DNA from: an uncultured bacterium | GTDB lineage: Bacteria; Krumholzibacteriota; Krumholzibacteriia; Krumholzibacteriales; CAZTHK01 | DNA length: 64,000 bases | Direction of reading: 5' to 3' | Assembly: GCA_964613215.1 (NCBI GenBank) | Contig: CAZTHK010000002.1 | Location: 149,685 to 213,684 of the forward strand | Shown here: positions 54,004-62,203 of the stretch, one piece after another | Layout: every line of letters begins with the position of its first letter | Numbering within the stretch: the stretch's first letter is position 1 | Notes under the pieces: generated by a model | The model's input: the letters and a program-made list of their open reading frames with translations, nothing else | Databases searched by the model: none | Told to the model about the DNA's origin: nothing | Translations under genes and position numbers: made by a program

Positions 54004-54687
54004 ATGCGAAATGAAATGATCGAAGGGCTCAGGCCCGACGACTATCTTACATCCATATTCGACAGCTCCCCCTTTGCCCTGATATCCCTGGATATGAGGC
54101 TGAGGGTGGTGCTGTTCAACCGCTCTGCTGAGAAGCTGACCGGGCTGAAGCACCGGGATGTAGCGGGACTGAGGATAAACAGGATAATAGAGTATAAGCA
54201 TATCAGAAATATAATAGATCTTATCAGAAAGAGGGGCAGCGTATATCTCAGCTCATACCTGGCCAGGCTAAGGGGCAGTGGCAACAGAGAGATCCCGGTC
54301 AAACTCAGCATATCACCACTGGAGGATAACCAGCAGAGGCTGCTGGGCATCCTGCTTATCGCTCTCGACATCAGGGAGATAAAGCGCCTCCAGTCACACC
54401 TGCTCGATGCCGAGCGGCTGGCCGCAATCACAGAAACCGCAGTGAGTATCAATCACGAGATCAACAATCCCCTGTGCTCCATCCTGGGCAACACCCAGCT
54501 GCTGCTTATGAACAGGGAGAAGCTGGATAAGAAGACTATCCGCAAGCTGGAGAGCATAGAGAAGGAGATAATGCGGATACAGAAGACCGCCCGGAAGCTT
54601 TCCCGGATCACTAGGCCGGTGCTGAAGGAGTACGTCAGCGGTACCAGAATGCTGGACGTGGAAAAGTCAGGTACCGATAAAGATTAG
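54004..54687 (+). CDS. PAS domain + HisKA (phosphoacceptor) protein lacking ATPase domain
   Basis: PAS (LRVVLFNRSAEKLTGL), H-box HEINNPL; ORF ends ~70 aa after H-box with no GHKL motifs. Confidence 0.65.
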   Translation: MRNEMIEGLRPDDYLTSIFDSSPFALISLDMRLRVVLFNRSAEKLTGLKHRDVAGLRINRIIEYKHIRNIIDLIRKRGSVYLSSYLARLRGSGNREIPVKLSISPLEDNQQRLLGILLIALDIREIKRLQSHLLDAERLAAITETAVSINHEINNPLCSILGNTQLLLMNREKLDKKTIRKLESIEKEIMRIQKTARKLSRITRPVLKEYVSGTRMLDVEKSGTDKD

Positions 54688-54861: not shown

Positions 54862-54872
54862 TACTGTCTGAT

Positions 54873-54945
54873 GGGAAGGTAGCTCAGTCGGTAGAGCAAC
54901 TGATTGAAAATCAGTGTGTCGGCGGTTCGATTCCGTCCCTTCCCA
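54873..54945 (+). tRNA. tRNA-Phe (anticodon GAA), 73 nt, CCA not encoded
   Basis: hand-folded cloverleaf: acceptor GGGAAGG/CCTTCCC, D-arm GCTC-AGTCGGTA-GAGC, anticodon stem ACTGA/TCAGT with loop TTGAAAA, T-arm GGCGG-TTCGATT-CCGTC, discriminator A. Confidence 0.9.
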
Positions 54946-54977
54946 TATTGTTATTTGCCACCAGATAATTAATTGTT

Positions 54978-55169
54978 TTAACCAGCCTTGTTCTCTGACT
55001 CTATCTTCTTCATCAGTTTTTCATGTTGGCTGGAAGCCTGTGTTATCCTTGCCAGAATTGCCAAAAAACATGCACCACAGATAATTCCGACACCCATTGT
55101 AGCTTCCGTTAAAAATAAAGCTCCAACAAAAGCCACTAATAAAGCGATGATAACCAGTAAAATAGTCAT
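54978..55169 (-). CDS. Possible small membrane protein (63 aa)
   Basis: ORF only; two hydrophobic segments; no homology recognised. Confidence 0.25.
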   Translation of the reverse strand: MTILLVIIALLVAFVGALFLTEATMGVGIICGACFLAILARITQASSQHEKLMKKIESENKAG

Positions 55170-55585
55170 TTTACCTCCTGATTTAATCTATTGTACAAAG
55201 ACCTTCCCGAGTTACAATAAAGCAAAGTTTTTATTATTTCTTAAATTGATTTTTAATATTTCCCCAGCTCCATGAAATTAGTTTATCACGAATCAACTTT
55301 AAACTCTATATTGCAGCAAAGCGCTGAGTATGAATTCGTAATGATTTTTCCAGGTTTGGGCCGGCATATAATAATAATTCCTGGATAATAAACTTTTTTC
55401 TGCAGATCACCCTCGTTTGATTGAGAAATACTTTCGCTCTAACATGTTGTTCAATACACTTATGTAAGGGAAAAAACAGAACGGTTAATAGTGGTTCCCG
55501 GGTTTCCCTGTGAATCCTGGTGATTCTCGGGATACTACCCGGACCTGGTTAGGCATTCGGCCAGGTCTACACTATCACCGGAGCT

Positions 55586-55602
55586 TAAGGCCGGCTGATA
55601 TG
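55586..55602. promoter_or_regulatory. Operator-like inverted repeat TGTCA-CTTTC-TGACAG, related to the AbiEi promoter palindrome
   Basis: shares core TGTCA-N5-TGACAG with 56078-56102 site; a further TGACA half-site follows 10 nt downstream. Confidence 0.3.
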
Positions 55603-56044
55603 AAAATGTTATAAATTGTCACTTTCTGACAGTATCTGACATATAACGGATGGATATACCGAATAACTGGTTGTTTTATAGATTCTTGTTAATCCGGGCA
55701 GTTAAATTAAATGTGGAGTTTCCCCAAAAAATGATGCAGGAATTTCATAAGATAATAAATAACAAGCCGTTATTAATATTGATAAGTGGAATATGTTTTC
55801 CGGGGTTTTTTCATCCGTTGCCTGGTGCTTCAAAACCCTCTGCGGGGAGAGCGGGCATGGTTTTCTGCCCCGGAGGGGCAGAAAGAGCGAGCCCGAGACG
55901 GGAGCTGCGATTCCCACGCTGGGGGAGTCGACAGCGATTTTGAAACACCAGGCAGCGGAATCATAGAGGTCGAATGAAAATTGGGGAAACTCCAGAGAAG
56001 AGTTACCTTGGTTTTTCTGATTTCGCTATCAGTTCGAATATTTC

Positions 56045-56102
56045 TTGCATAATCAAGCTTTATGTATATAATTGATAGAAACTGTCACAATATGACAGTT
56101 TC
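56045..56102 (+). promoter_or_regulatory. abiE promoter (-35 TTGCAT 56045-50, -10 TATAAT 56067-72) with overlapping perfect palindromic operator GAAACTGTCA-CAATA-TGACAGTTTC (56078-56102)
   Basis: 10-bp perfect inverted repeat with 5-nt spacer starting at predicted TSS, immediately upstream of AbiEi-like gene. Confidence 0.5.
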
Positions 56103-56110
56103 TTGCAAAT

Positions 56111-56761
56111 ATGAGGTATATAATGCAACCATTGACCAGGAAAGTTTTTGAAGAACTACCGCGCAGTGATTTCACCATGGAGGATGTAATTGCCTTATTC
56201 CCCGTCAATGGTCAGCGCAGGTACGGGCTGGTAAAACGGGCTATTGCCAGTGGAGAGGTGATTCATATCCGAAGGGGGCTTTATTGTCTCGCTCCACAGT
56301 ACCGGAAGAGAAAGGTGAATCTATATTCTTTAGCTCAGCGCATCAACGGTCCCTCGTATATCAGCCTTGAATCAGCCTTGAGTTGGTATGGTTGGATTCC
56401 CGAAGCCGTATATACACTAACCAGTGTATCATTAAACAGGTCCAGGGATTTCGATACTCCCCTGGCTTTTTTCAGCTATACCAGGGTTCCCCAGAAGGTC
56501 TTTTATACTTCTGTGCAAAGGATTACTGATGATGATGACAATTCTTTTCTGATGGCAACACCGCTGAAGGCTCTGGCTGATTATGTGTATGTGAATAAGA
56601 AGGACTGGGCTGGTGCAAAACCTGTAACCGAGAGCATGCGAATCGATCGGGAGGAGTTAGGATCAATAACTGACGGCGAGATTCAACTGCTGATCAGTAA
56701 TTACAATAGCCGTAGAGTTAAAAAATTTCTTAAGGGATTGGAGAGGGATCTTAAATCATGA
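56111..56761 (+). CDS. AbiEi-like antitoxin/transcriptional regulator (type IV TA); probable start at second ATG 56123 (GAGG 6 nt upstream)
   Basis: N-terminal winged-helix region with conserved IHIRRGLYCL (AbiEi_4-like), ~210 aa, translationally overlapping downstream nucleotidyltransferase gene (ATGA). Confidence 0.65.
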   Translation: MRYIMQPLTRKVFEELPRSDFTMEDVIALFPVNGQRRYGLVKRAIASGEVIHIRRGLYCLAPQYRKRKVNLYSLAQRINGPSYISLESALSWYGWIPEAVYTLTSVSLNRSRDFDTPLAFFSYTRVPQKVFYTSVQRITDDDDNSFLMATPLKALADYVYVNKKDWAGAKPVTESMRIDREELGSITDGEIQLLISNYNSRRVKKFLKGLERDLKS

Positions 56762-57624
56762 GCGTTAAAATTATTCAGAACAGGCTTGATTCCTATAATT
56801 GCAAAACGGACTTGGAGGAGGAGCAGGCTCTCCGGGAAATCACTCAGGAAGTTTCACTGGCGGCGCTGTCGAGAACCGATTTTTTCAAATCCGCAGCATT
56901 TCAGGGGGGGACCTGCCTTCGTATATTTTACGGATCCAACCGTTTCTCGGAGGATTTCGATTTTCTTTTAAAGAAACCTGACGGCAGTTTTAATCTGAGC
57001 CCCTATTTGAATAAAGTTTCAGATGAATTGGATGCATATGGTTACAAACTGGAATTATCAGACCGGTCGAAGGAGGGAGGCACAGTTAAAAAAGCATTTA
57101 TCAAGAATTCTTCGATCGGTAAAATTTTAAGGTTGAAGTATTTGAAACCTGATAGATCCATGCGTAAAATCAGAATTAAGTTCGAAGTCGATACCAATCC
57201 CCCGGCGGGAAGCAATTATGAAGTCAAATATATGGATTTTCCATTTGTTAGTTCAGTAACAGTTCAGGATCTTCCCAGCCTTTTTGCCGGTAAAATACAT
57301 GCAATGTTGTGCAGGGATTATGTGAAGGGAAGGGACTGGTATGATTTCATCTGGTATACCTCGAGGGGAACCGGTATTAACTACCGGTTTCTTGCTTCGG
57401 CTCTAAAGCAGCAGGGCCCATGGAGGGGGGAGGATATGGAGGTTGGCAGCAGATGGGTTCTGGAGGCACTGCGAGAGAAGATAATCACACTTGACTGGAA
57501 GAAGGCAAGAGAAGATATAAGGCGGTTTTTACAGCCCTCCGAACTGGCATCGCTGGAGCTGTGGTCGCAGGAGCTATTCCTTGACCGCCTGGAAAATTAT
57601 GCTTCCGGAATGAATAAATATTAG
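56758..57624 (+). CDS. AbiEii/AbiGii-family nucleotidyltransferase toxin (type IV TA, DUF1814)
   Basis: conserved GGTCLRIFYGSNRFSEDFDF nucleotidyltransferase motif region; 288 aa; paired with AbiEi-like gene. Confidence 0.75.
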   Translation: MSVKIIQNRLDSYNCKTDLEEEQALREITQEVSLAALSRTDFFKSAAFQGGTCLRIFYGSNRFSEDFDFLLKKPDGSFNLSPYLNKVSDELDAYGYKLELSDRSKEGGTVKKAFIKNSSIGKILRLKYLKPDRSMRKIRIKFEVDTNPPAGSNYEVKYMDFPFVSSVTVQDLPSLFAGKIHAMLCRDYVKGRDWYDFIWYTSRGTGINYRFLASALKQQGPWRGEDMEVGSRWVLEALREKIITLDWKKAREDIRRFLQPSELASLELWSQELFLDRLENYASGMNKY

Positions 57625-57640
57625 TGAAATACTATTCTAA

Positions 57641-57690
57641 TAACCCTGAGGGTAGAGTTCCACGGGTTTGGCCGTGGGTTATGTACTAAT
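57641..57690 (+). promoter_or_regulatory. Conserved leader element copy 3: AACCCTGAGGGTAGAGTTCC + perfect hairpin CCACGG-GTTTGG-CCGTGG + GTTATG
   Basis: begins 17 nt after AbiEii stop, 230 nt upstream of cstA. Confidence 0.45.
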
Positions 57691-57921
57691 CCAAAGGGCA
57701 GAATTCAATCTGTTAGCACATAAGTGCATGTAATCCCCCCGGAGGGCTTCCAGCTGAGTGGGTAATTTTTATAACTAATGCAACGGGCCTGCCCGTGAAT
57801 GACCACATTAAAGTTATTGTTATTCCCCCCCGGCTTGTTGTAGAATGAAAGGTTGTTAATTTTGCAACCAGGCCGACGGCCGGCCGGTGGAGACCGGAAC
57901 AGCAGATAACTGGAGGGATTT

Positions 57922-59640
57922 ATGACTACCACATTGATCCTTATAATCGGTCTGGTACTGTATGTTCTGCTTTACTTCATATACGGTAAGAGGCTGGAAA
58001 GGATTGTAAAGGCCGACGACAGCTGTGAAGCACCCTCTCACCGCTATTACGATGGGGTGGATTACATACCGGCGAAGAGGGAGGTGCTTTTCGGTCATCA
58101 CTTCGCCTCCATAGCGGGTGCTGCTCCCATAATAGGACCGGTGCTGGCAATGGCCTGGGGCTGGGCTCCGGCCATTCTGTGGGTGTGGCTGGGAAATATC
58201 TTTATGGGAGCGGTTCATGATTATCTGGCGGTTATGGCATCGGTGAGATACCGGGGAAAATCGATACAGTTTGTTGCCTCCGATCTGATATCCAGCCGTA
58301 CGGGGAAGAACTTCTACTGGCTGGTCTTCTTTCTGCTTATTCTGATCATAGCCGCCTTCGGAGCGGTTATCGCAGGGATGTTCATACATGATCCCTCTGT
58401 GGCTTCATCATATATATTCATTATTATCTCAGCCCTTCTGCTGGGTGTGATGATGTACCGGCTTAAATGGAATTTTATCCTTTCCACGGTGATAGGGGTT
58501 GTCCTGCTGGGATTTTCACTGTGGCTGGGGATAAGGGTTCCCATAACCCTGGGCTGGAACAGCTGGATCCTGATCCTGTTTTTTTACATCATCATAGCTG
58601 CTTCCATACCGGTTAATATACTGTTGCAGCCCCGGGACTATCTGAATTCATATCTGCTCTACGCCGGGCTGATAATAGGAGGGCTGGCTGCTCTGTTCAG
58701 CCTGCATAAATTCGCAGTACCGGCATTTACCACCTTCGCTCCGATTATCTCCCACGGGAAGCCCACCCCATTCTGGCCGGCCATTGTTCTTATAATTGCC
58801 TGCGGGTCTCTGTCGGGTTTTCACTCACTGGTGGGGTCGGGCACAACTTCCAAACAGATCAATTGTGAATCAGATGTTCTTCCCATAGGCTACGGGTGCA
58901 TGCTGGCGGAGGGTTTTCTCTCCACCATTGTTATTATATCCATAGCCGGTTTCGGATACGGGCTGCTCAAGGCGAAGGCGGGCGCCGAAATAACCAGCTG
59001 GGGAAGCGACTACACCCGGCTTATGATGGAGCACTATCCCAAGGCGGTGATGTTCACCCATTCCTACTCCGAGATGGTGGATTCAACCTTCCTCAAATTC
59101 ATCCCGCAGAAGATAATCGCCGTGCTGGCGGGGATGTGGGTCGCCTCATTTGCCCTTACCACTCTGGATACCACCAACCGGCTGGCCAGGTACACCATTG
59201 CTGAGATGCTCAAACCCCTGGAGGATAGCGCCCGGGGACTGTACAACATTCTCTCCAACAAGTGGGTAGCATCTGTGATACCGGCAGCTATTGGTATGTG
59301 GCTGGCCTGGAGCAGGAACTTCACCATACTTTGGCCCTCCTTCAGTACTGCCAACCAGCTTATCGCATCCATAGCACTTCTGACCACTACGGTGTGGCTT
59401 AAAAAGAGAGTGAAAGCAGGCAGCATGAAGATTGCCCTGATACCTGCCATGATACTGTGGTTTACCGTAACCGGGGCGATAGTCTGGTTCGGAGCAGCCG
59501 TTCTGCCTTCCACCATCAGCACCGATCCGGCCACCGGAATTGCAGTAACCCTGATCGAGGTAGTAATGTTCGTTCTGAATATCGTATTTATCCGGGATTT
59601 TATTATAAGCTACAGGGAGCCGGTAGAGGGTGAAGTTTAA
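57922..59640 (+). CDS. cstA: Carbon starvation protein A family transporter (CstA)
   Basis: conserved FGHHFASIAGAAPIIGPVLA motif, ~16 TM, 572 aa. Confidence 0.9.
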   Translation: MTTTLILIIGLVLYVLLYFIYGKRLERIVKADDSCEAPSHRYYDGVDYIPAKREVLFGHHFASIAGAAPIIGPVLAMAWGWAPAILWVWLGNIFMGAVHDYLAVMASVRYRGKSIQFVASDLISSRTGKNFYWLVFFLLILIIAAFGAVIAGMFIHDPSVASSYIFIIISALLLGVMMYRLKWNFILSTVIGVVLLGFSLWLGIRVPITLGWNSWILILFFYIIIAASIPVNILLQPRDYLNSYLLYAGLIIGGLAALFSLHKFAVPAFTTFAPIISHGKPTPFWPAIVLIIACGSLSGFHSLVGSGTTSKQINCESDVLPIGYGCMLAEGFLSTIVIISIAGFGYGLLKAKAGAEITSWGSDYTRLMMEHYPKAVMFTHSYSEMVDSTFLKFIPQKIIAVLAGMWVASFALTTLDTTNRLARYTIAEMLKPLEDSARGLYNILSNKWVASVIPAAIGMWLAWSRNFTILWPSFSTANQLIASIALLTTTVWLKKRVKAGSMKIALIPAMILWFTVTGAIVWFGAAVLPSTISTDPATGIAVTLIEVVMFVLNIVFIRDFIISYREPVEGEV

Positions 59641-59911
59641 TCTGTTCGGATATATAAAGAATCTGCTGGCAGGCTTTGACAGGCTTTCCAGAGACAGAGC
59701 GACCGAAACCCTGGAGTATGAACTTCAGGAGATGGAGTTCGCATTCGTTCAGATGCTGTTTTCTTCTTTTATAGGGTTGCCGGCTGTGCCGGAATCTGTG
59801 GCTCTGGAAGTTCTTCCCCATATGCAGGATGAGCTGGCCAGGCTGGAGGGACGGGCAGCCGGTTCTGAAGATCTCCTGGCGGAACTGTTCGGAAAACTGG
59901 ACTTTGAATAA
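59630..59911 (+). CDS. Small acidic hypothetical protein (93 aa, GTG start overlapping cstA stop)
   Basis: tight coupling: overlaps cstA by 11 nt, ends 1 nt before ArsA-like ATG; GAGG 6 nt upstream. Confidence 0.4.
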   Translation: MKFNLFGYIKNLLAGFDRLSRDRATETLEYELQEMEFAFVQMLFSSFIGLPAVPESVALEVLPHMQDELARLEGRAAGSEDLLAELFGKLDFE

Positions 59912-59912
59912 G

Positions 59913-60806
59913 ATGAAATGCTACTTCTTTACAGGTAAGGGGGGAACGGGAAAGACCACCGTGGCTGCTTCCCTTGGCTGGCAGCTGGCACAGAGGGGGC
60001 AAAGGACTCTCCTGGTCTCCCTCGATCCGGCCCACAGCGTGGGGGATTTCTTCTCTGCTGATATCGATGGGGAAAAAGAGATTATTCCCGGGCTCATTGT
60101 CCAGGAGCCCGATTTCGACAGCATAAACAAAGAGTACATAAGCCAGCAGCTGGATACACTCAAGGGCATGAACCGCCAGCTTACCGTGTTCAACCTGGAA
60201 CACCTTCTGGACAGCCTGGAATACTCGCCCGGCCAGGAGGAATACGCCACCATCCTGCACCTGAAAAGGACCCTGCAGGAAAATAAAAACAAATTTGATT
60301 TTATTATATTCGACACTCCCCCCACCGGCATGATACTGCGGATGTTTTCGCTGCCCTTCCGCTCGAAGCTCTGGCTGGAGAGGCTGATCAAACTGAGAAA
60401 AAAGATCGTGGACAGAAGGGAGCTTATAGGGGATATCAGAAAAAGGGAGGATGCGGATAACTATTACCGGAATGATAAGGTGCTGAAAAAGCTAAAGGAA
60501 CTCCTGGAGGATTATTCCCGGCTGGCTGATTTCTTCCAAAGGGAAGCACATATCTATCTGGTGATAAACAACGACCCGCTGGCCCTCCGGGAATCGGTAC
60601 GGCTTCGGGATAAGCTGAAGAATATGGAGATTAACTTATCCGGGGTAATAAACAACAAGTTCGATGAGTCTGACAGCACAGAGCAGCTGGAAGAAGCGGG
60701 ATTCGATCCCGGCAGTATGATAATAATAAAATCAGGGATAAACAGGGCAGAGGAAGGATACACAGTACCGGTAGATCTGATCGAGAAATTAACCAGTCAT
60801 GAGTGA
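59913..60806 (+). CDS. ArsA/Get3-family P-loop ATPase (single-domain, 297 aa); start at ATG 59913 (MKCYFFTGKGG)
   Basis: deviant Walker A GKGGTGKTT, DTPPTG signature (ArsA DTAPTGH-like), LDPAHS motif. Confidence 0.8.
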   Translation: MKCYFFTGKGGTGKTTVAASLGWQLAQRGQRTLLVSLDPAHSVGDFFSADIDGEKEIIPGLIVQEPDFDSINKEYISQQLDTLKGMNRQLTVFNLEHLLDSLEYSPGQEEYATILHLKRTLQENKNKFDFIIFDTPPTGMILRMFSLPFRSKLWLERLIKLRKKIVDRRELIGDIRKREDADNYYRNDKVLKKLKELLEDYSRLADFFQREAHIYLVINNDPLALRESVRLRDKLKNMEINLSGVINNKFDESDSTEQLEEAGFDPGSMIIIKSGINRAEEGYTVPVDLIEKLTSHE

Positions 60807-61419
60807 GACCCTGTTAATTAATATATTTATAATTATCTCTATAATTCTGATGGTGGGCTACTTCTTCGGCAGGCGTAAGAACCAGGCCATCGCAGCCTCA
60901 GCGATCAGTGCCCTGAATAAAGCGCTAAAACCCGAAGATCAGAAAATAACCAATATCGGTGGCGTAATTGGATATCACGTGGAGATGTCCTTCGGCAAAA
61001 AAAGAAATATCCAGCAGGTCAAAGGCACCATTACCATGCTCCCCCGCCACAGCCTGCTGTATCTGCCCATATCCATGATCTTCCGCCGCTTCGACCGGTT
61101 TTTTATTACCATAAAATTAAAACAGCTTCCCACAGAAAAGGAAGCCCGTATCTTTGAAAGGCGTTTCTACAATAAGCACAGAAAAAACACGGGGACACAT
61201 CTGCAGCGGGAAGAATTTAATCCTGGCTCCGGGGATTATATTTATCTCTATGAAAACGATGCGGACCTTAAGATTCTCAAAGCCATTATGGACAAGATAG
61301 AAGATCCTGAAAGATTAAAGGAAACCTCCATGCGGCCCGACAGCAGCGAAGTAGAGTTGCTGTTTGTTCCAACAGTGGGGGAGAACAGAGTATTGATATC
61401 TATTCTCAGAAGCATTTAA
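60799..61419 (+). CDS. N-terminally anchored membrane protein, hypothetical (overlaps ArsA-like stop by 8 nt)
   Basis: single N-terminal TM (LLINIFIIISIILMVGYFF), no recognised domain. Confidence 0.45.
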   Translation: MSETLLINIFIIISIILMVGYFFGRRKNQAIAASAISALNKALKPEDQKITNIGGVIGYHVEMSFGKKRNIQQVKGTITMLPRHSLLYLPISMIFRRFDRFFITIKLKQLPTEKEARIFERRFYNKHRKNTGTHLQREEFNPGSGDYIYLYENDADLKILKAIMDKIEDPERLKETSMRPDSSEVELLFVPTVGENRVLISILRSI

Positions 61420-61438: not shown

Positions 61439-62203
61439 CTAATCCGCACTTACATTTTTGCGAAGCTCAACCACCACTGAATCTGTTAACATGGTTTCAT
61501 GCGGTTGCCCTACTCCAAGGATCCAGGAGCTATCAGGTCTGGCAAATTGATAGACCGGATAGTAGGCATACCCGTCAGCCCTGGATACCTTCCATTCCTC
61601 CACAAATACCGAGTCTTCATCAACAACAACCCGGGTCGAGTGAACCTCCGGGAAATGGTCTTTGGATCCTCCCTCAAACATCCATATTTTTCCATAGAAG
61701 GCCATTGCCACTTGTGAGTCGAAAGAAGTTGGTGGAAGGGGGGAAAGGTCGCGGACCACCGGCTTATTACCATTCTCTCCAAGAAATGCTATTAAGACCA
61801 GTGTGCCAACCAGAACTGAGGGCACAATGAAGATTAACCGGCGCCACCAGGCCGACCGGATTCTGTTCAGTCCTTCCGGTGAAGCATACCCATCACAACC
61901 AGTTTCCCGGATGGATTCTGTTTCTGCCTCATCTGATTCTAAAAGTTCCTCAAGAGTTTCTATGGCAGCTTCTTCATCCTTCCGCATTACCTGAAGCTCA
62001 ACCGGTCCCGTTATCACGTTGTATCCGGCACCGATTCTGCCCAGCCCGAATAGATACTGAACACCTTCACCCTTAGCCAGAGATTCGATTCCGGCATCAG
62101 CCAGCAGTGACTTTGCAATGGACAGCAGCCCCGGGTCGCCTGTCCGGAGTATGGTGACCAGCATATCCGAGTGAGAACCGTTATTGTTGGAACTGAAAGG
62201 CAT
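61439..62203 (-). CDS. DUF2007-domain membrane protein
   Basis: N-terminal DUF2007-like putative signal-transducing domain (LVTILRTGDPGLLSIAKSLLADAGI), central TM helix. Confidence 0.5.
   Translation of the reverse strand: MPFSSNNNGSHSDMLVTILRTGDPGLLSIAKSLLADAGIESLAKGEGVQYLFGLGRIGAGYNVITGPVELQVMRKDEEAAIETLEELLESDEAETESIRETGCDGYASPEGLNRIRSAWWRRLIFIVPSVLVGTLVLIAFLGENGNKPVVRDLSPLPPTSFDSQVAMAFYGKIWMFEGGSKDHFPEVHSTRVVVDEDSVFVEEWKVSRADGYAYYPVYQFARPDSSWILGVGQPHETMLTDSVVVELRKNVSAD

Follow-up and report, generated by a model that had tools for sequence, protein, structure and literature searches.

An operon joining a CstA-family permease to an ArsA/Get3-family ATPase and a small membrane protein with a CCDC47-like fold

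The 64,000-nucleotide window analyzed here, from a contig of an uncultured bacterium of the Krumholzibacteriales, carries four genes in one chain on the forward strand: cstA (57922..59640), cstX (59630..59911), a gene for an ArsA/Get3/TRC40-family ATPase (59913..60806), and cstY (60799..61419). The ORF listing and a direct reading of the junctions showed that cstA and cstX overlap by 11 nt, that 1 nt separates cstX from the ATPase gene, and that the ATPase gene and cstY overlap by 8 nt, exactly as an earlier note on this DNA had described. The intergenic leader/promoter region 5′ of cstA (57625..57921, forward strand), whose sequence was also read directly, contains a Shine-Dalgarno sequence (GGAGG, approximately 57913-57917) located 6 nt upstream of the cstA ATG. 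A single weak sigma-70-like match lies at 57817-57846, and promoter-like matches in the leader were no commoner than in shuffled sequences; no Rfam family was matched in the leader at E ≤ 0.1. The cstX gene begins with GTG at 59630, 10 nt downstream of AGGGAG, and overlaps the end of cstA (TAA, 59638-59640). The ATPase gene begins with ATG at 59913, one base past the TAA of cstX, and ends with TGA at 60804-60806, within the overlap created by the ATG of cstY at 60799. A mechanical ORF list places the start of the ATPase earlier, at the ATG at 59829; the start was taken as 59913 based on the gene call on an identical public contig (L001) and on the homologue alignment, with the P-loop at residues 8-16. 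The operon is flanked upstream by an AbiEi/AbiEii pair and downstream by a convergent DUF2007 gene, and no ars genes (arsR, arsB, acr3, or arsD) were found in the cluster or in approximately 3-4 kb on either side.

The first gene encodes a 572-aa permease of the CstA family, which matches PF02554 across profile positions 3-556 of 560 (E = 1.4e-126). This family (TC 2.A.114) consists of pyruvate/peptide transporters, which are widespread importers, many of them encoded beside an ArsA-like ATPase. The window CstA and E. coli CstA are not orthologues, to judge from the score of 188 bits that the former reaches against PRK15015, far under the equivalog cutoff of 1188, and no solved structure was detectable for the window protein by sequence. 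E. coli CstA and BtsT are H+ symporters that work without an ATPase, and thus an ATPase is not intrinsically required for CstA. For pyruvate uptake, E. coli CstA requires YbdD, a small co-encoded protein (PMC5847655).

The second gene encodes an acidic protein of 93 aa, CstX, assigned to DUF7990 (PF25952). Conservation of this small ORF had been singled out by the earlier note as a point to check, and it proved to be strong: a profile search recovered 1025 homologues, with PF25952/DUF7990 in 120 of the 120 matches listed, and an alignment of 26 members showed a mean column identity of 56% and invariant residues, as did further family alignments (A2 and A3). On these alignments, the ORF is a real gene. 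The family is acidic (median pI 4.65), and the AF2 model, with a pLDDT of only 60, places helices at residues 5-48 and 55-89, so that CstX is predicted to fold as a hairpin of two helices whose tip, around a GLPxxP hinge, is hydrophobic. Such a tip is likelier than a transmembrane segment (TMS), since the maximum 19-residue Kyte-Doolittle hydropathy (KD19) of 1.5-1.6 is borderline for a TMS and the segment is split by GLPxPP. Sub-threshold matches to NCBIfam NF041419 (cory-CC-star) in all 26 members, the best at 7e-7, suggest a distant relationship with that family. The window CstX itself was rejected as a cory-CC-star equivalog, because it scores 16.3 bits against the at least 80 needed and its C-terminus (...KLDFE) lacks the Cys-Cys expected from the family name. 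Pfam searches with CstX and 25 relatives gave no consistent match, no match to DUF466 even at E ≤ 10, and no Asterix-like partner.

The third gene encodes a single-domain P-loop ATPase of 297 aa that matches PF02374 (E = 2.7e-48) and TIGR00345 (GET3/ArsA/TRC40; 166.9 bits against a cutoff of 135), in agreement with its earlier identification as an ArsA/Get3 protein by the motifs GKGGTGKTT and DTPPTG. The catalytic motifs are intact, and GKGGxGKS/T, SLDPAH (DPAH switch I), YSPGxEEYA, and FDTPPTG are conserved across the family. Its nearest solved relatives are ArsA and Get3: the protein is collinear with ArsA (1f48) and, over approximately 250 residues that include the helical subdomain, with archaeal Get3 (3ug6 and 3zq6, ~1e-25). 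Only distantly related to it are the BagA/BagB models and the Rv3679/Rv3680 structures. A conserved Cys pair (CXXC) is absent across 76 family members, and in the sequence alignment the helical subdomain (residues 150-215) contains 0% Met and 48% charged residues, compared to 10-13% Met in 3ug6/3zq6. As for ArsA, the metalloid-binding cysteines are missing from the window ATPase, whose single Cys is non-conserved; the His of DTAPTGHT is replaced by Leu or Met throughout the family (DTPPTGM/L), and no ligand or allosteric site matching the ArsA metalloid site was recognizable in the sequence. Assignment as an ArsA arsenical pump ATPase was rejected, with 91 bits against the TIGR04291 equivalog cutoff of 650 and a length of 297 aa compared to two fused halves (~580 aa) in ArsA. 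The earlier view that the enzyme is unlikely to be an arsenical pump subunit is thus borne out by both its missing cysteines and its context.

The last gene encodes CstY, a protein of 206 aa with an N-terminal transmembrane anchor at approximately residues 5-23 (KD19 2.71), after which come RRK and an alpha/beta domain in the cytoplasm. The family is basic (median pI 9.9) and comprises 262 representatives among 1.84 billion proteins. A Foldseek search of the PDB with the AF2 model (pLDDT 94.1, pTM 0.86) returned 7tm3_4, 9i78_4, and 6w6l_7 at the top (probability 1.0, TMq 0.45-0.65), with E-values among the three of 6.5e-7, 9.4e-7, and 1.7e-3, while the next ones had E > 0.02 and a TM of approximately 0.2. 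All three were checked to be chains of CCDC47 and are the sole PDB matches of the CstY fold. The corresponding Pfam family (PF07946) was matched by 26 of 29 CstY members at E ≤ 0.1 (best 1.3e-5), under the gathering score in all but one (P0019, a precomputed assignment); the window CstY, at 22.6 bits, is below the gathering score of 27.7. Moreover, the CstY motif GYFxGRRxN aligns with NYIIGKNKN of CCDC47, where an N-out anchor is likewise followed by a basic stretch. In its modeled structure, CstY therefore shares the fold of the transmembrane and globular domains of CCDC47, a likeness that is new here. The transmembrane segment opens the CstY chain, and the globular domain closes it at residue 206; Pfam searches detected no enzyme or sensor domain in either CstX or CstY.

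The order cstA-cstX-ATPase-cstY, on one strand, is retained in approximately 74 of the 84 loci of a first set (78 of them independent) from Syntrophales, Desulfohalobiaceae, Desulfobacterales, Spirochaetota, Krumholzibacteriales, and Neomarinimicrobiota. It recurs in four of five extra loci, archaeal MAGs included, sampled at the outer margin of the CstY family. Conservation at this level excludes chance, and the linkage is not incidental: the operon is a real, strongly conserved unit, as its reading as one module had supposed, and homologues of the ATPase co-occur with cstA and the small ORF almost without exception. The CstY family occurs in 238 species genomes, and the best-matching 80 of these, which were examined, are all bacterial. 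An archaeal (Thermoproteota) locus (L085/L086) holds all four families, and the CstY family profile matches an archaeal protein (P0309) at E = 3.8e-24 in a cstA-DUF7990-ArsA context. The cstX and ATPase genes overlap or abut in 57 of 70 loci, which is consistent with 1:1 co-production, and the gap between the ATPase gene and cstY has a median of 15 nt. The spacing between cstA and cstX is usually approximately 87 nt rather than an overlap. Departures from the arrangement include a locus with cstY directly after cstA and no ATPase gene (L008) and one genome in which cstX-ATPase-cstY is present with no cstA within 6.7 kb (L009).

A pairing of CstA with an ArsA/Get3-like ATPase and a small acidic partner, which the earlier note took to be undescribed, was in fact published from comparative genomics as cstA-cstX-arsA(-cstY) operons (Castillo and Saier, 2010, Int J Microbiol 2010:187373; PMC2963123). 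These authors found 26 clusters of cstA with an arsA homologue, 24 of them with a CstX of approximately 90 aa and five archaeal ones with a single-TMS CstY of approximately 210 aa, and the operon is carried by Thermococcus kodakarensis (PMC2963123). The trees of CstA, CstX, and ArsA were parallel, CstX was never found without CstA, and Hyperthermus butylicus was reported to have CstA, CstX, and CstY without an ArsA homologue (PMC2963123). That the ATPase energizes CstA was proposed in the same study, so the idea of an ATPase-assisted accessory likewise predates the present analysis (PMC2963123). The 93-aa protein of the window is the CstX of Castillo and Saier, as judged from its Pfam family and from the PF25952/DUF7990 protein that lies between cstA and the ATPase gene in archaeal loci (L085-L087). 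The 206-aa protein likewise corresponds to their CstY in its size, its single TMS, its place at the end of the cluster, and the profile match to P0309.

We favor, at a probability of roughly 0.45, a reading in which the four products form one membrane complex that serves as an ATP-driven accessory acting on CstA. CstA would be the permease, and CstY would be its single-pass anchor, with a basic cytoplasmic domain at the membrane face. CstX would be an acidic two-helix hairpin produced in a fixed ratio with the ATPase, a putative deviant-Walker-A enzyme of the SIMIBI class (the P-loop NTPase class that takes in MinD, ParA, ArsA, and Get3) that would dimerize upon binding ATP. CstX and CstY may then hold the ATP-bound dimer on CstA, where uptake may be driven or gated by its ATP cycle. 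This would parallel ArsA, which makes the secondary carrier ArsB an ATP-coupled pump, and the control of related ATPases by small partners such as ArsD or MinE. A role of CstX and CstY as transporter subunits fits their persistence with CstA in the absence of the ATPase, as in L008 and H. butylicus. The physical complex, its protein-protein contacts, and its effect on transport are inferred; in their favor are also the conserved four-gene linkage, the intact catalytic motifs of the ATPase with ArsA and Get3 as its nearest solved relatives, the complementary charges of CstX and CstY, the parallel trees (PMC2963123), and the precedent of CstA-YbdD in E. coli (PMC5847655). Arguing against the complex are the ATPase-independent work of CstA and BtsT in E. 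coli, the lack of a recognizable equivalent of the ArsA metalloid site in the ATPase, the trio without a nearby cstA in L009, the low-confidence fold of CstX alone, and the fact that the eukaryotic relatives Get3 and CCDC47 act in membrane-protein biogenesis rather than transport.

In a reading that we consider less likely, CstX, the ATPase, and CstY would form a dedicated biogenesis/chaperone module that helps to insert, fold, stabilize, or hold the large multipass CstA. In such a prokaryotic counterpart of GET/PAT, CstY would be a CCDC47-like scaffold and the ATPase an ATP-dependent holdase or targeting factor. The Get3-style insertion or chaperone role raised earlier gains support from the CCDC47 fold of CstY, backed by its exclusive PDB matches, the Pfam matches in most members, and the common topology of an N-out anchor and a basic stretch, as well as from the passing TIGR00345 score of the ATPase and its collinearity with archaeal Get3. 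In eukaryotes, CCDC47 is a subunit of the PAT complex and scaffolds a chaperone for multipass membrane proteins, and CstA is itself multipass. The same role loses support from the ATPase, which has neither the Get3 CXXC nor a Met-rich client-binding subdomain, and CstY lacks the ribosome-binding latch helices and lumenal domain of CCDC47 as well as a detectable Asterix-like partner. Moreover, there are few precedents for a private ATP-dependent chaperone of one transporter made in a fixed ratio, and the E. coli homologues of CstA assemble without such factors. More doubtful still is a stronger form of this proposal, in which CstY and CCDC47 would be true homologues and the trio a prokaryotic biogenesis or chaperone device, dedicated to CstA in archaea and bacteria and related by evolution to parts of GET/PAT.

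It is improbable that the trio serves a separate purpose and is tied to CstA only metabolically, with CstA merely co-regulated. Such a purpose may be the sensing or handling of the imported substrate or energy state, or a stress response like that of the mycobacterial Get3-like BagAB, whose models, with the Rv3679/Rv3680 structures, are distantly related to the ATPase. The trio without an adjacent cstA in L009 would fit, as would the usual cstA-cstX spacing, which may allow expression levels to differ. However, adjacency to cstA is near-universal in bacteria and archaea, neither CstX nor CstY has a detectable enzyme or sensor domain, and the reported confinement of CstX to genomes with CstA and the parallel component trees (PMC2963123) also argue otherwise. 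A remnant or variant arsenical pump (an ArsA without ArsB), or a set of incidental neighbors, is very improbable. The ATPase does match the Pfam ArsA_ATPase family, with ArsA among its best PDB sequence matches, but the TIGR04291 score, the one-domain architecture with a lone non-conserved Cys, the lack of ars genes nearby, and the conserved four-gene order all point away from it.

If the ATPase energizes or gates CstA, the operon would add to the arsenic pump another instance, unrelated to arsenic, of a secondary carrier turned ATP-coupled. If it encodes a biogenesis device instead, Get3 and CCDC47, two eukaryotic families of membrane-protein assembly, would be joined in one prokaryotic operon; true homology of CstY would moreover overturn the published view that PAT components, CCDC47 included, are missing from prokaryotes and would indicate the origin of the CCDC47 globular domain. 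Under either reading, the strict four-gene conservation makes for a compact, genetically testable system, and genetic tools exist for Thermococcus kodakarensis.

Among known systems, the operons of Castillo and Saier are the closest, with CstA first, a CstX of ~90 aa, a single-domain ArsA homologue of ~300-330 aa, a single-TMS CstY of ~210 aa last, and, as in the window cluster, no ars genes. Their CstY was confined to five archaea, whereas here it extends to the 238 species genomes (the best 80 examined being bacterial) and to archaeal MAGs; their CstX was described as single-TMS, whereas a hydrophobic hairpin tip appears likelier here, and the CCDC47-like fold of CstY was unremarked by them. 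The ArsAB pump shares with the window operon an ATPase from a common superfamily branch, a small partner encoded beside it, and the notion that a soluble ATPase docks onto a secondary carrier. In contrast to ArsA, the window ATPase is one domain rather than a fused pseudo-dimer, lacks the metalloid cysteines, and has the His of DTAPTGHT replaced, and its carrier would be CstA rather than ArsB/Acr3, with no ArsR or ArsD. As in Get3/TRC40 systems, the ATPase passes TIGR00345, has a deviant Walker A and DPAH, and adjoins a membrane-anchored partner; unlike Get3, its sequence lacks the CXXC zinc-binding dimerization motif and the Met-rich hydrophobic client groove, and its partners are CstX and CstY rather than a Get1/Get2-type receptor.

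CstY resembles CCDC47 (7TM3, 6W6L, and 9I78) in its single anchor, basic stretch, alpha/beta cytosolic domain of common fold, and N-out/C-in topology, with a weak but consistent sequence-profile similarity. It differs in the absence of the lumenal acidic domain, the C-terminal latch/coiled-coil ribosome-binding helices, and the Asterix partner, and in its setting, a transporter operon in place of the Sec translocon. Lastly, the CstA-YbdD and BtsT-YjiX pairs of E. coli likewise consist of a CstA-family permease followed by a small co-expressed protein, there of the DUF466 family, although CstX has no detectable similarity to DUF466 and the ATPase and CstY are additions that E. coli lacks.

By the ORF list and junction reading, the cstA gene (57922-59640, +) heads a run of four forward-strand genes; it has GGAGG 6 nt 5' of its ATG, and its stop codon is the TAA at 59638-59640. 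The 93-aa ORF cstX, named like cstY after Castillo & Saier 2010 (PMC2963123), begins with GTG at 59630, overlaps cstA by 11 nt and ends at 59911. The ATPase gene starts with ATG at 59913, 1 base past the TAA of cstX, and stops with TGA at 60804-60806; the 206-aa ORF cstY starts at 60799 (+), with an 8-nt overlap. The ORF list and junction sequences thus reproduce exactly the four ORFs, overlaps and spacing described in an earlier note. A mechanical ORF list also gives a longer ATPase ORF from 59829; the start at 59913 was preferred because of the gene call on an identical public contig (L001) and because the family alignment places the P-loop at residues 8-16. Upstream of the module lies an AbiEi/AbiEii pair, and downstream of it a DUF2007 gene in convergent orientation. 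The ORF list and Pfam scan of the neighbours show no adjoining ars genes, which agrees with the claim that no arsenite-pump genes are adjacent. An Rfam scan of the cstA leader gave no match, and promoter and terminator scans at the module gave no matches above background.

The upstream stretch (54872-57831) may be a small islet inserted at tRNA-Phe. Beyond the tRNA-Phe gene (54872-54946), GC content is low (0.39-0.45) over a stretch where an AbiEi-like antitoxin gene (56111-56761) shares 4 nt with the gene for an AbiEii toxin (56758-57624; PF08843, E 2e-33). This low-GC stretch lies between the copies of a 17-nt imperfect direct repeat (54946-54962 and 57815-57831, 82% identical) that could be due to chance, and no integrase was seen within 54872-57831. 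The ORF-poor segment 55650-56000 contains nested inverted repeats (outer, 55714-55727 and 55981-55994, 14 nt, 100%; inner, 55814-55835 and 55938-55959, 22 nt, 91% complementary) and had no Rfam match. Just 5' of tRNA-Phe ends the gene for a 227-aa protein (54004-54687), whose sequence, read by eye, looks PAS-like at the N-terminus and has a dimerisation segment resembling HisKA; as no ATPase domain is apparent by eye, it may be a truncated sensor kinase. On the other side of the module, the product of the DUF2007 gene (61439-62203, -) is 254 aa long and has a predicted membrane span as well as, at its N-terminus, the DUF2007 domain ("putative prokaryotic signal transducing protein", E 1e-8); the gene ends 20 nt from the cstY stop and is not conserved beside the module in other loci.

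The four-gene linkage is real and ancient. A word-indexed search found 62 relatives of the 206-aa protein, and in neighbourhood look-ups Desulfovermiculus and a Krumholzibacteriales MAG proved to carry all four genes, which are spaced identically in the MAG. Scanned over one genome per GTDB species, a CstY-family profile (A1) matched 238 genomes, from which the 80 best-matching loci were fetched. All ORFs of the loci were extracted and searched with iterated HMMs seeded by the four window proteins. The order cstA, cstX, ATPase gene, cstY on one strand was found in approximately 74 of 84 loci, which include six repeat fetches (the window's own contig or two MAG contigs) and hence represent 78 independent loci. 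The linkage to cstA therefore does recur, as the earlier note had asked, and chance juxtaposition is ruled out. Most exceptions are contig ends, and two are real. In a MAG (L008, 1-1552), cstY directly follows cstA while cstX and the ATPase gene are absent, which suggests that CstY can act with CstA alone. In a Syntrophales locus (L009, 6737-8624), cstX, the ATPase gene and cstY occur without cstA within 6.7 kb; this locus is flanked by a divergent PAS histidine kinase and a LuxR-type response regulator upstream and by a baeRF (bacterial archaeo-eukaryotic release factor family 3) protein downstream.

An exhaustive HMMER search found only 262 CstY family members, of approximately 200-260 aa or shorter fragments, in 1.84 billion representatives. 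Four members from the distant tail of this search all lie within the four-gene context, including one from a Thermoproteota archaeon (L085/L086) and one with archaeal-type neighbours (L087; for example SRP54 and thermosome). The cstX-ATPase junction is overlapping or abutting in 57 of 70 loci, and the ATPase-cstY gap has a median of 15 nt. The cstA-cstX gap is usually about 87 nt, and the 11-nt overlap is therefore particular to the window's clade. CstY and CstX had no tblastn match on PLSDB plasmids.

Several loci carry additional elements. A second, diverged CstY paralogue lies beside the module in 12 of the 84 loci, either downstream (L019, L030, L038, L050, L064, L069, L073, L079, L081) or upstream of cstA (L060, L077, L083). 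In Desulfohalobiaceae/Desulfovermiculus, a rubrerythrin/DUF2383-like gene lies between cstA and cstX (L003, on the same contig as L041, 3434-3925; L004, 1951-2442), and long cstA-cstX gaps in L025, L027, L031 and L042 suggest the same insertion. A similar gene is found 1.8 kb downstream in a Krumholzibacteriales locus (L002, 8380-8859). The Desulfovermiculus module is flanked by pyruvate:ferredoxin oxidoreductase genes, and in a Desulfovermiculus MAG an 855-nt interval lacking a convincing ORF lies between the ATPase gene and cstY (L003, 5146-6000), as also seen in L004.

Precomputed hits place CstX in Pfam DUF7990 (PF25952). Only 4 close relatives came from a word-indexed search using the 93-aa protein by itself, and a profile of locus-derived sequences was needed; this retrieved 1025 homologues, with PF25952 on all 120 matches listed, which are near-consensus only and give no view of distant members. 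These homologues and a mean column identity of 56% in a 26-member alignment establish the 93-aa ORF as a real gene. The alignment has a conserved core (ELENIFALLLLGSFVGLPxPPxFLAVELLPxMExEL...DMLAE), and the family is acidic (median pI 4.65). The NCBIfam model "cory-CC-star" weakly matched 26 of 26 members (best 7e-7, far under cutoff), pointing to a distant actinobacterial relative. Searches against Pfam at E<=10 gave no consistent match and no Get1/TMCO1, Asterix or DUF466 signal, and the profile matched nothing meaningful among PDB sequences. Prolines break the hydrophobic stretch, and its KD19 of 1.5-1.6 makes it a borderline candidate for a membrane span. AlphaFold predicts two long helices meeting at a GLPxxP hinge with a pLDDT of only 60, too uncertain for a fold search; this model would fit a protein that folds on a partner.

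The ATPase matches PF02374 (E 2.7e-48) and scores 166.9 bits on the NCBIfam GET3/ArsA/TRC40 subfamily model, above the cutoff of 135, and 91 bits on the ArsA equivalog, below its cutoff of 650. These scores bear out both its earlier assignment to the ArsA/Get3 family and the view that it is unlikely to be a canonical arsenical pump subunit. Over about 250 residues its sequence aligns collinearly with archaeal Get3 (3ug6, 3zq6; E ~1e-25) and with ArsA halves. Because GKGGxGK(S/T), SLDPAH, YSPGxEEYA and FDTPPTG are kept across 76 family members, the protein should be an active, ATP-dimerising SIMIBI enzyme, with dimerisation expected from its family. The same 76 members have no conserved cysteine pair and therefore lack the Get3 CXXC motif and the ArsA metalloid site. 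The His of DTAPTGHT in ArsA is replaced by Leu or Met, and the segment corresponding to the client-binding helices of Get3 contains no methionine and 48% charged residues, whereas archaeal Get3 segments contain 10-13% Met. The missing hallmarks indicate that the ATPase is not a canonical ArsA, nor is it a tail-anchor chaperone of the canonical kind; a canonical arsenic pump is ruled out by the equivalog score and the missing cysteine pair.

In the CstY family, which is basic (pI 9.9), a clear membrane span at the N-terminus precedes GRRxN, and TNIGGxxGYH and LPRHSLLYLP are also conserved (A1). By the positive-inside rule, the domain of about 180 residues is probably cytoplasmic. An AlphaFold model built with the family alignment (pLDDT 94.1, pTM 0.86) gave three leading Foldseek matches in the PDB, namely 7tm3_4 (E 6.5e-7, TMq 0.65), 9i78_4 (E 9.4e-7) and 6w6l_7 (E 1.7e-3), with all others at E>0.02 and TM of about 0.2. 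A sequence probe confirmed all three as CCDC47, from the mammalian multipass translocon and the fungal SND3 translocon. Independent sequence evidence agrees: the Pfam CCDC47 model (PF07946) matches 26 of 29 members at residues ~9-105 (best 1.3e-5), the window protein, at 22.6 bits, falling short of the gathering score (27.7), and one family member has a precomputed PF07946 assignment. The CstY profile matched nothing meaningful among PDB sequences, and hhalign with the single human CCDC47 sequence was weak (E 0.026, probability 1.9%). It pairs GYFxGRRxN with NYIIGKNKN and LPRHSLLYLP with LKRQDLLNVL, a motif alignment that is suggestive and short of independent proof. PAT components are stated to be absent from prokaryotes (PMC9630114), and the literature searched makes no mention of prokaryotic CCDC47/DUF1682 relatives. 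Unlike CCDC47, CstY lacks the lumenal domain and the ribosome-binding latch helices.

We tentatively favour a reading, with a probability of roughly 0.45, in which the four products would form one membrane complex and the ATPase cycle would drive or gate CstA. It is favoured because the linkage is strict, because the cstX-ATPase junction fits co-production at 1:1, and because CstX/CstY stay with CstA in loci that lack the ATPase (L008 and, in the 2010 paper, Hyperthermus). It is further favoured because E. coli CstA requires a small partner, YbdD (PMC5847655), and because ArsA-ArsB provides a precedent. The main rival, that CstX, the ATPase and CstY are a dedicated biogenesis or chaperone module, draws on the role in membrane-protein biogenesis played by eukaryotic relatives of the ATPase and of CstY alike, with CstA as a multipass client; however, the ATPase is missing the Get3 client-binding hallmarks and CstY the CCDC47 latch, and we regard this as rather unlikely. 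The Syntrophales trio without a nearby cstA would suit an independent function merely co-regulated with CstA, which seems improbable.

The CstA of the window (PF02554, E 1.4e-126) had no related solved structure in a PDB sequence search. The earlier note knew of no described pairing of such a transporter with an ArsA/Get3-like ATPase and a small acidic partner; this claim of novelty fails because cstA-cstX-arsA(-cstY) clusters were reported in 2010 (Castillo & Saier 2010, PMC2963123). That study found a ~90-aa "CstX" in 24 of its 26 clusters and a ~210-aa single-TMS "CstY" in five archaeal clusters, with parallel protein trees and no ars genes in the cstA-arsA-homologue clusters. In its proposal, the ArsA homologue would supply CstA with energy, CstX would be the coupler and CstY an auxiliary protein; the literature searched contained no later work on CstX/CstY and nothing on DUF7990. 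Protein sizes, gene order and topology in the window match these clusters, and the window is identified as cstA-cstX-arsA-like-cstY because archaeal loci share the small-protein Pfam family and encode a protein with detectable homology to the 206-aa one. The window is thus one more, bacterial, member of a known, uncharacterised operon type. Whereas CstY was reported from five archaea, it is widespread in bacteria in this analysis, and the new element is its predicted CCDC47-like fold beside a Get3-family ATPase.
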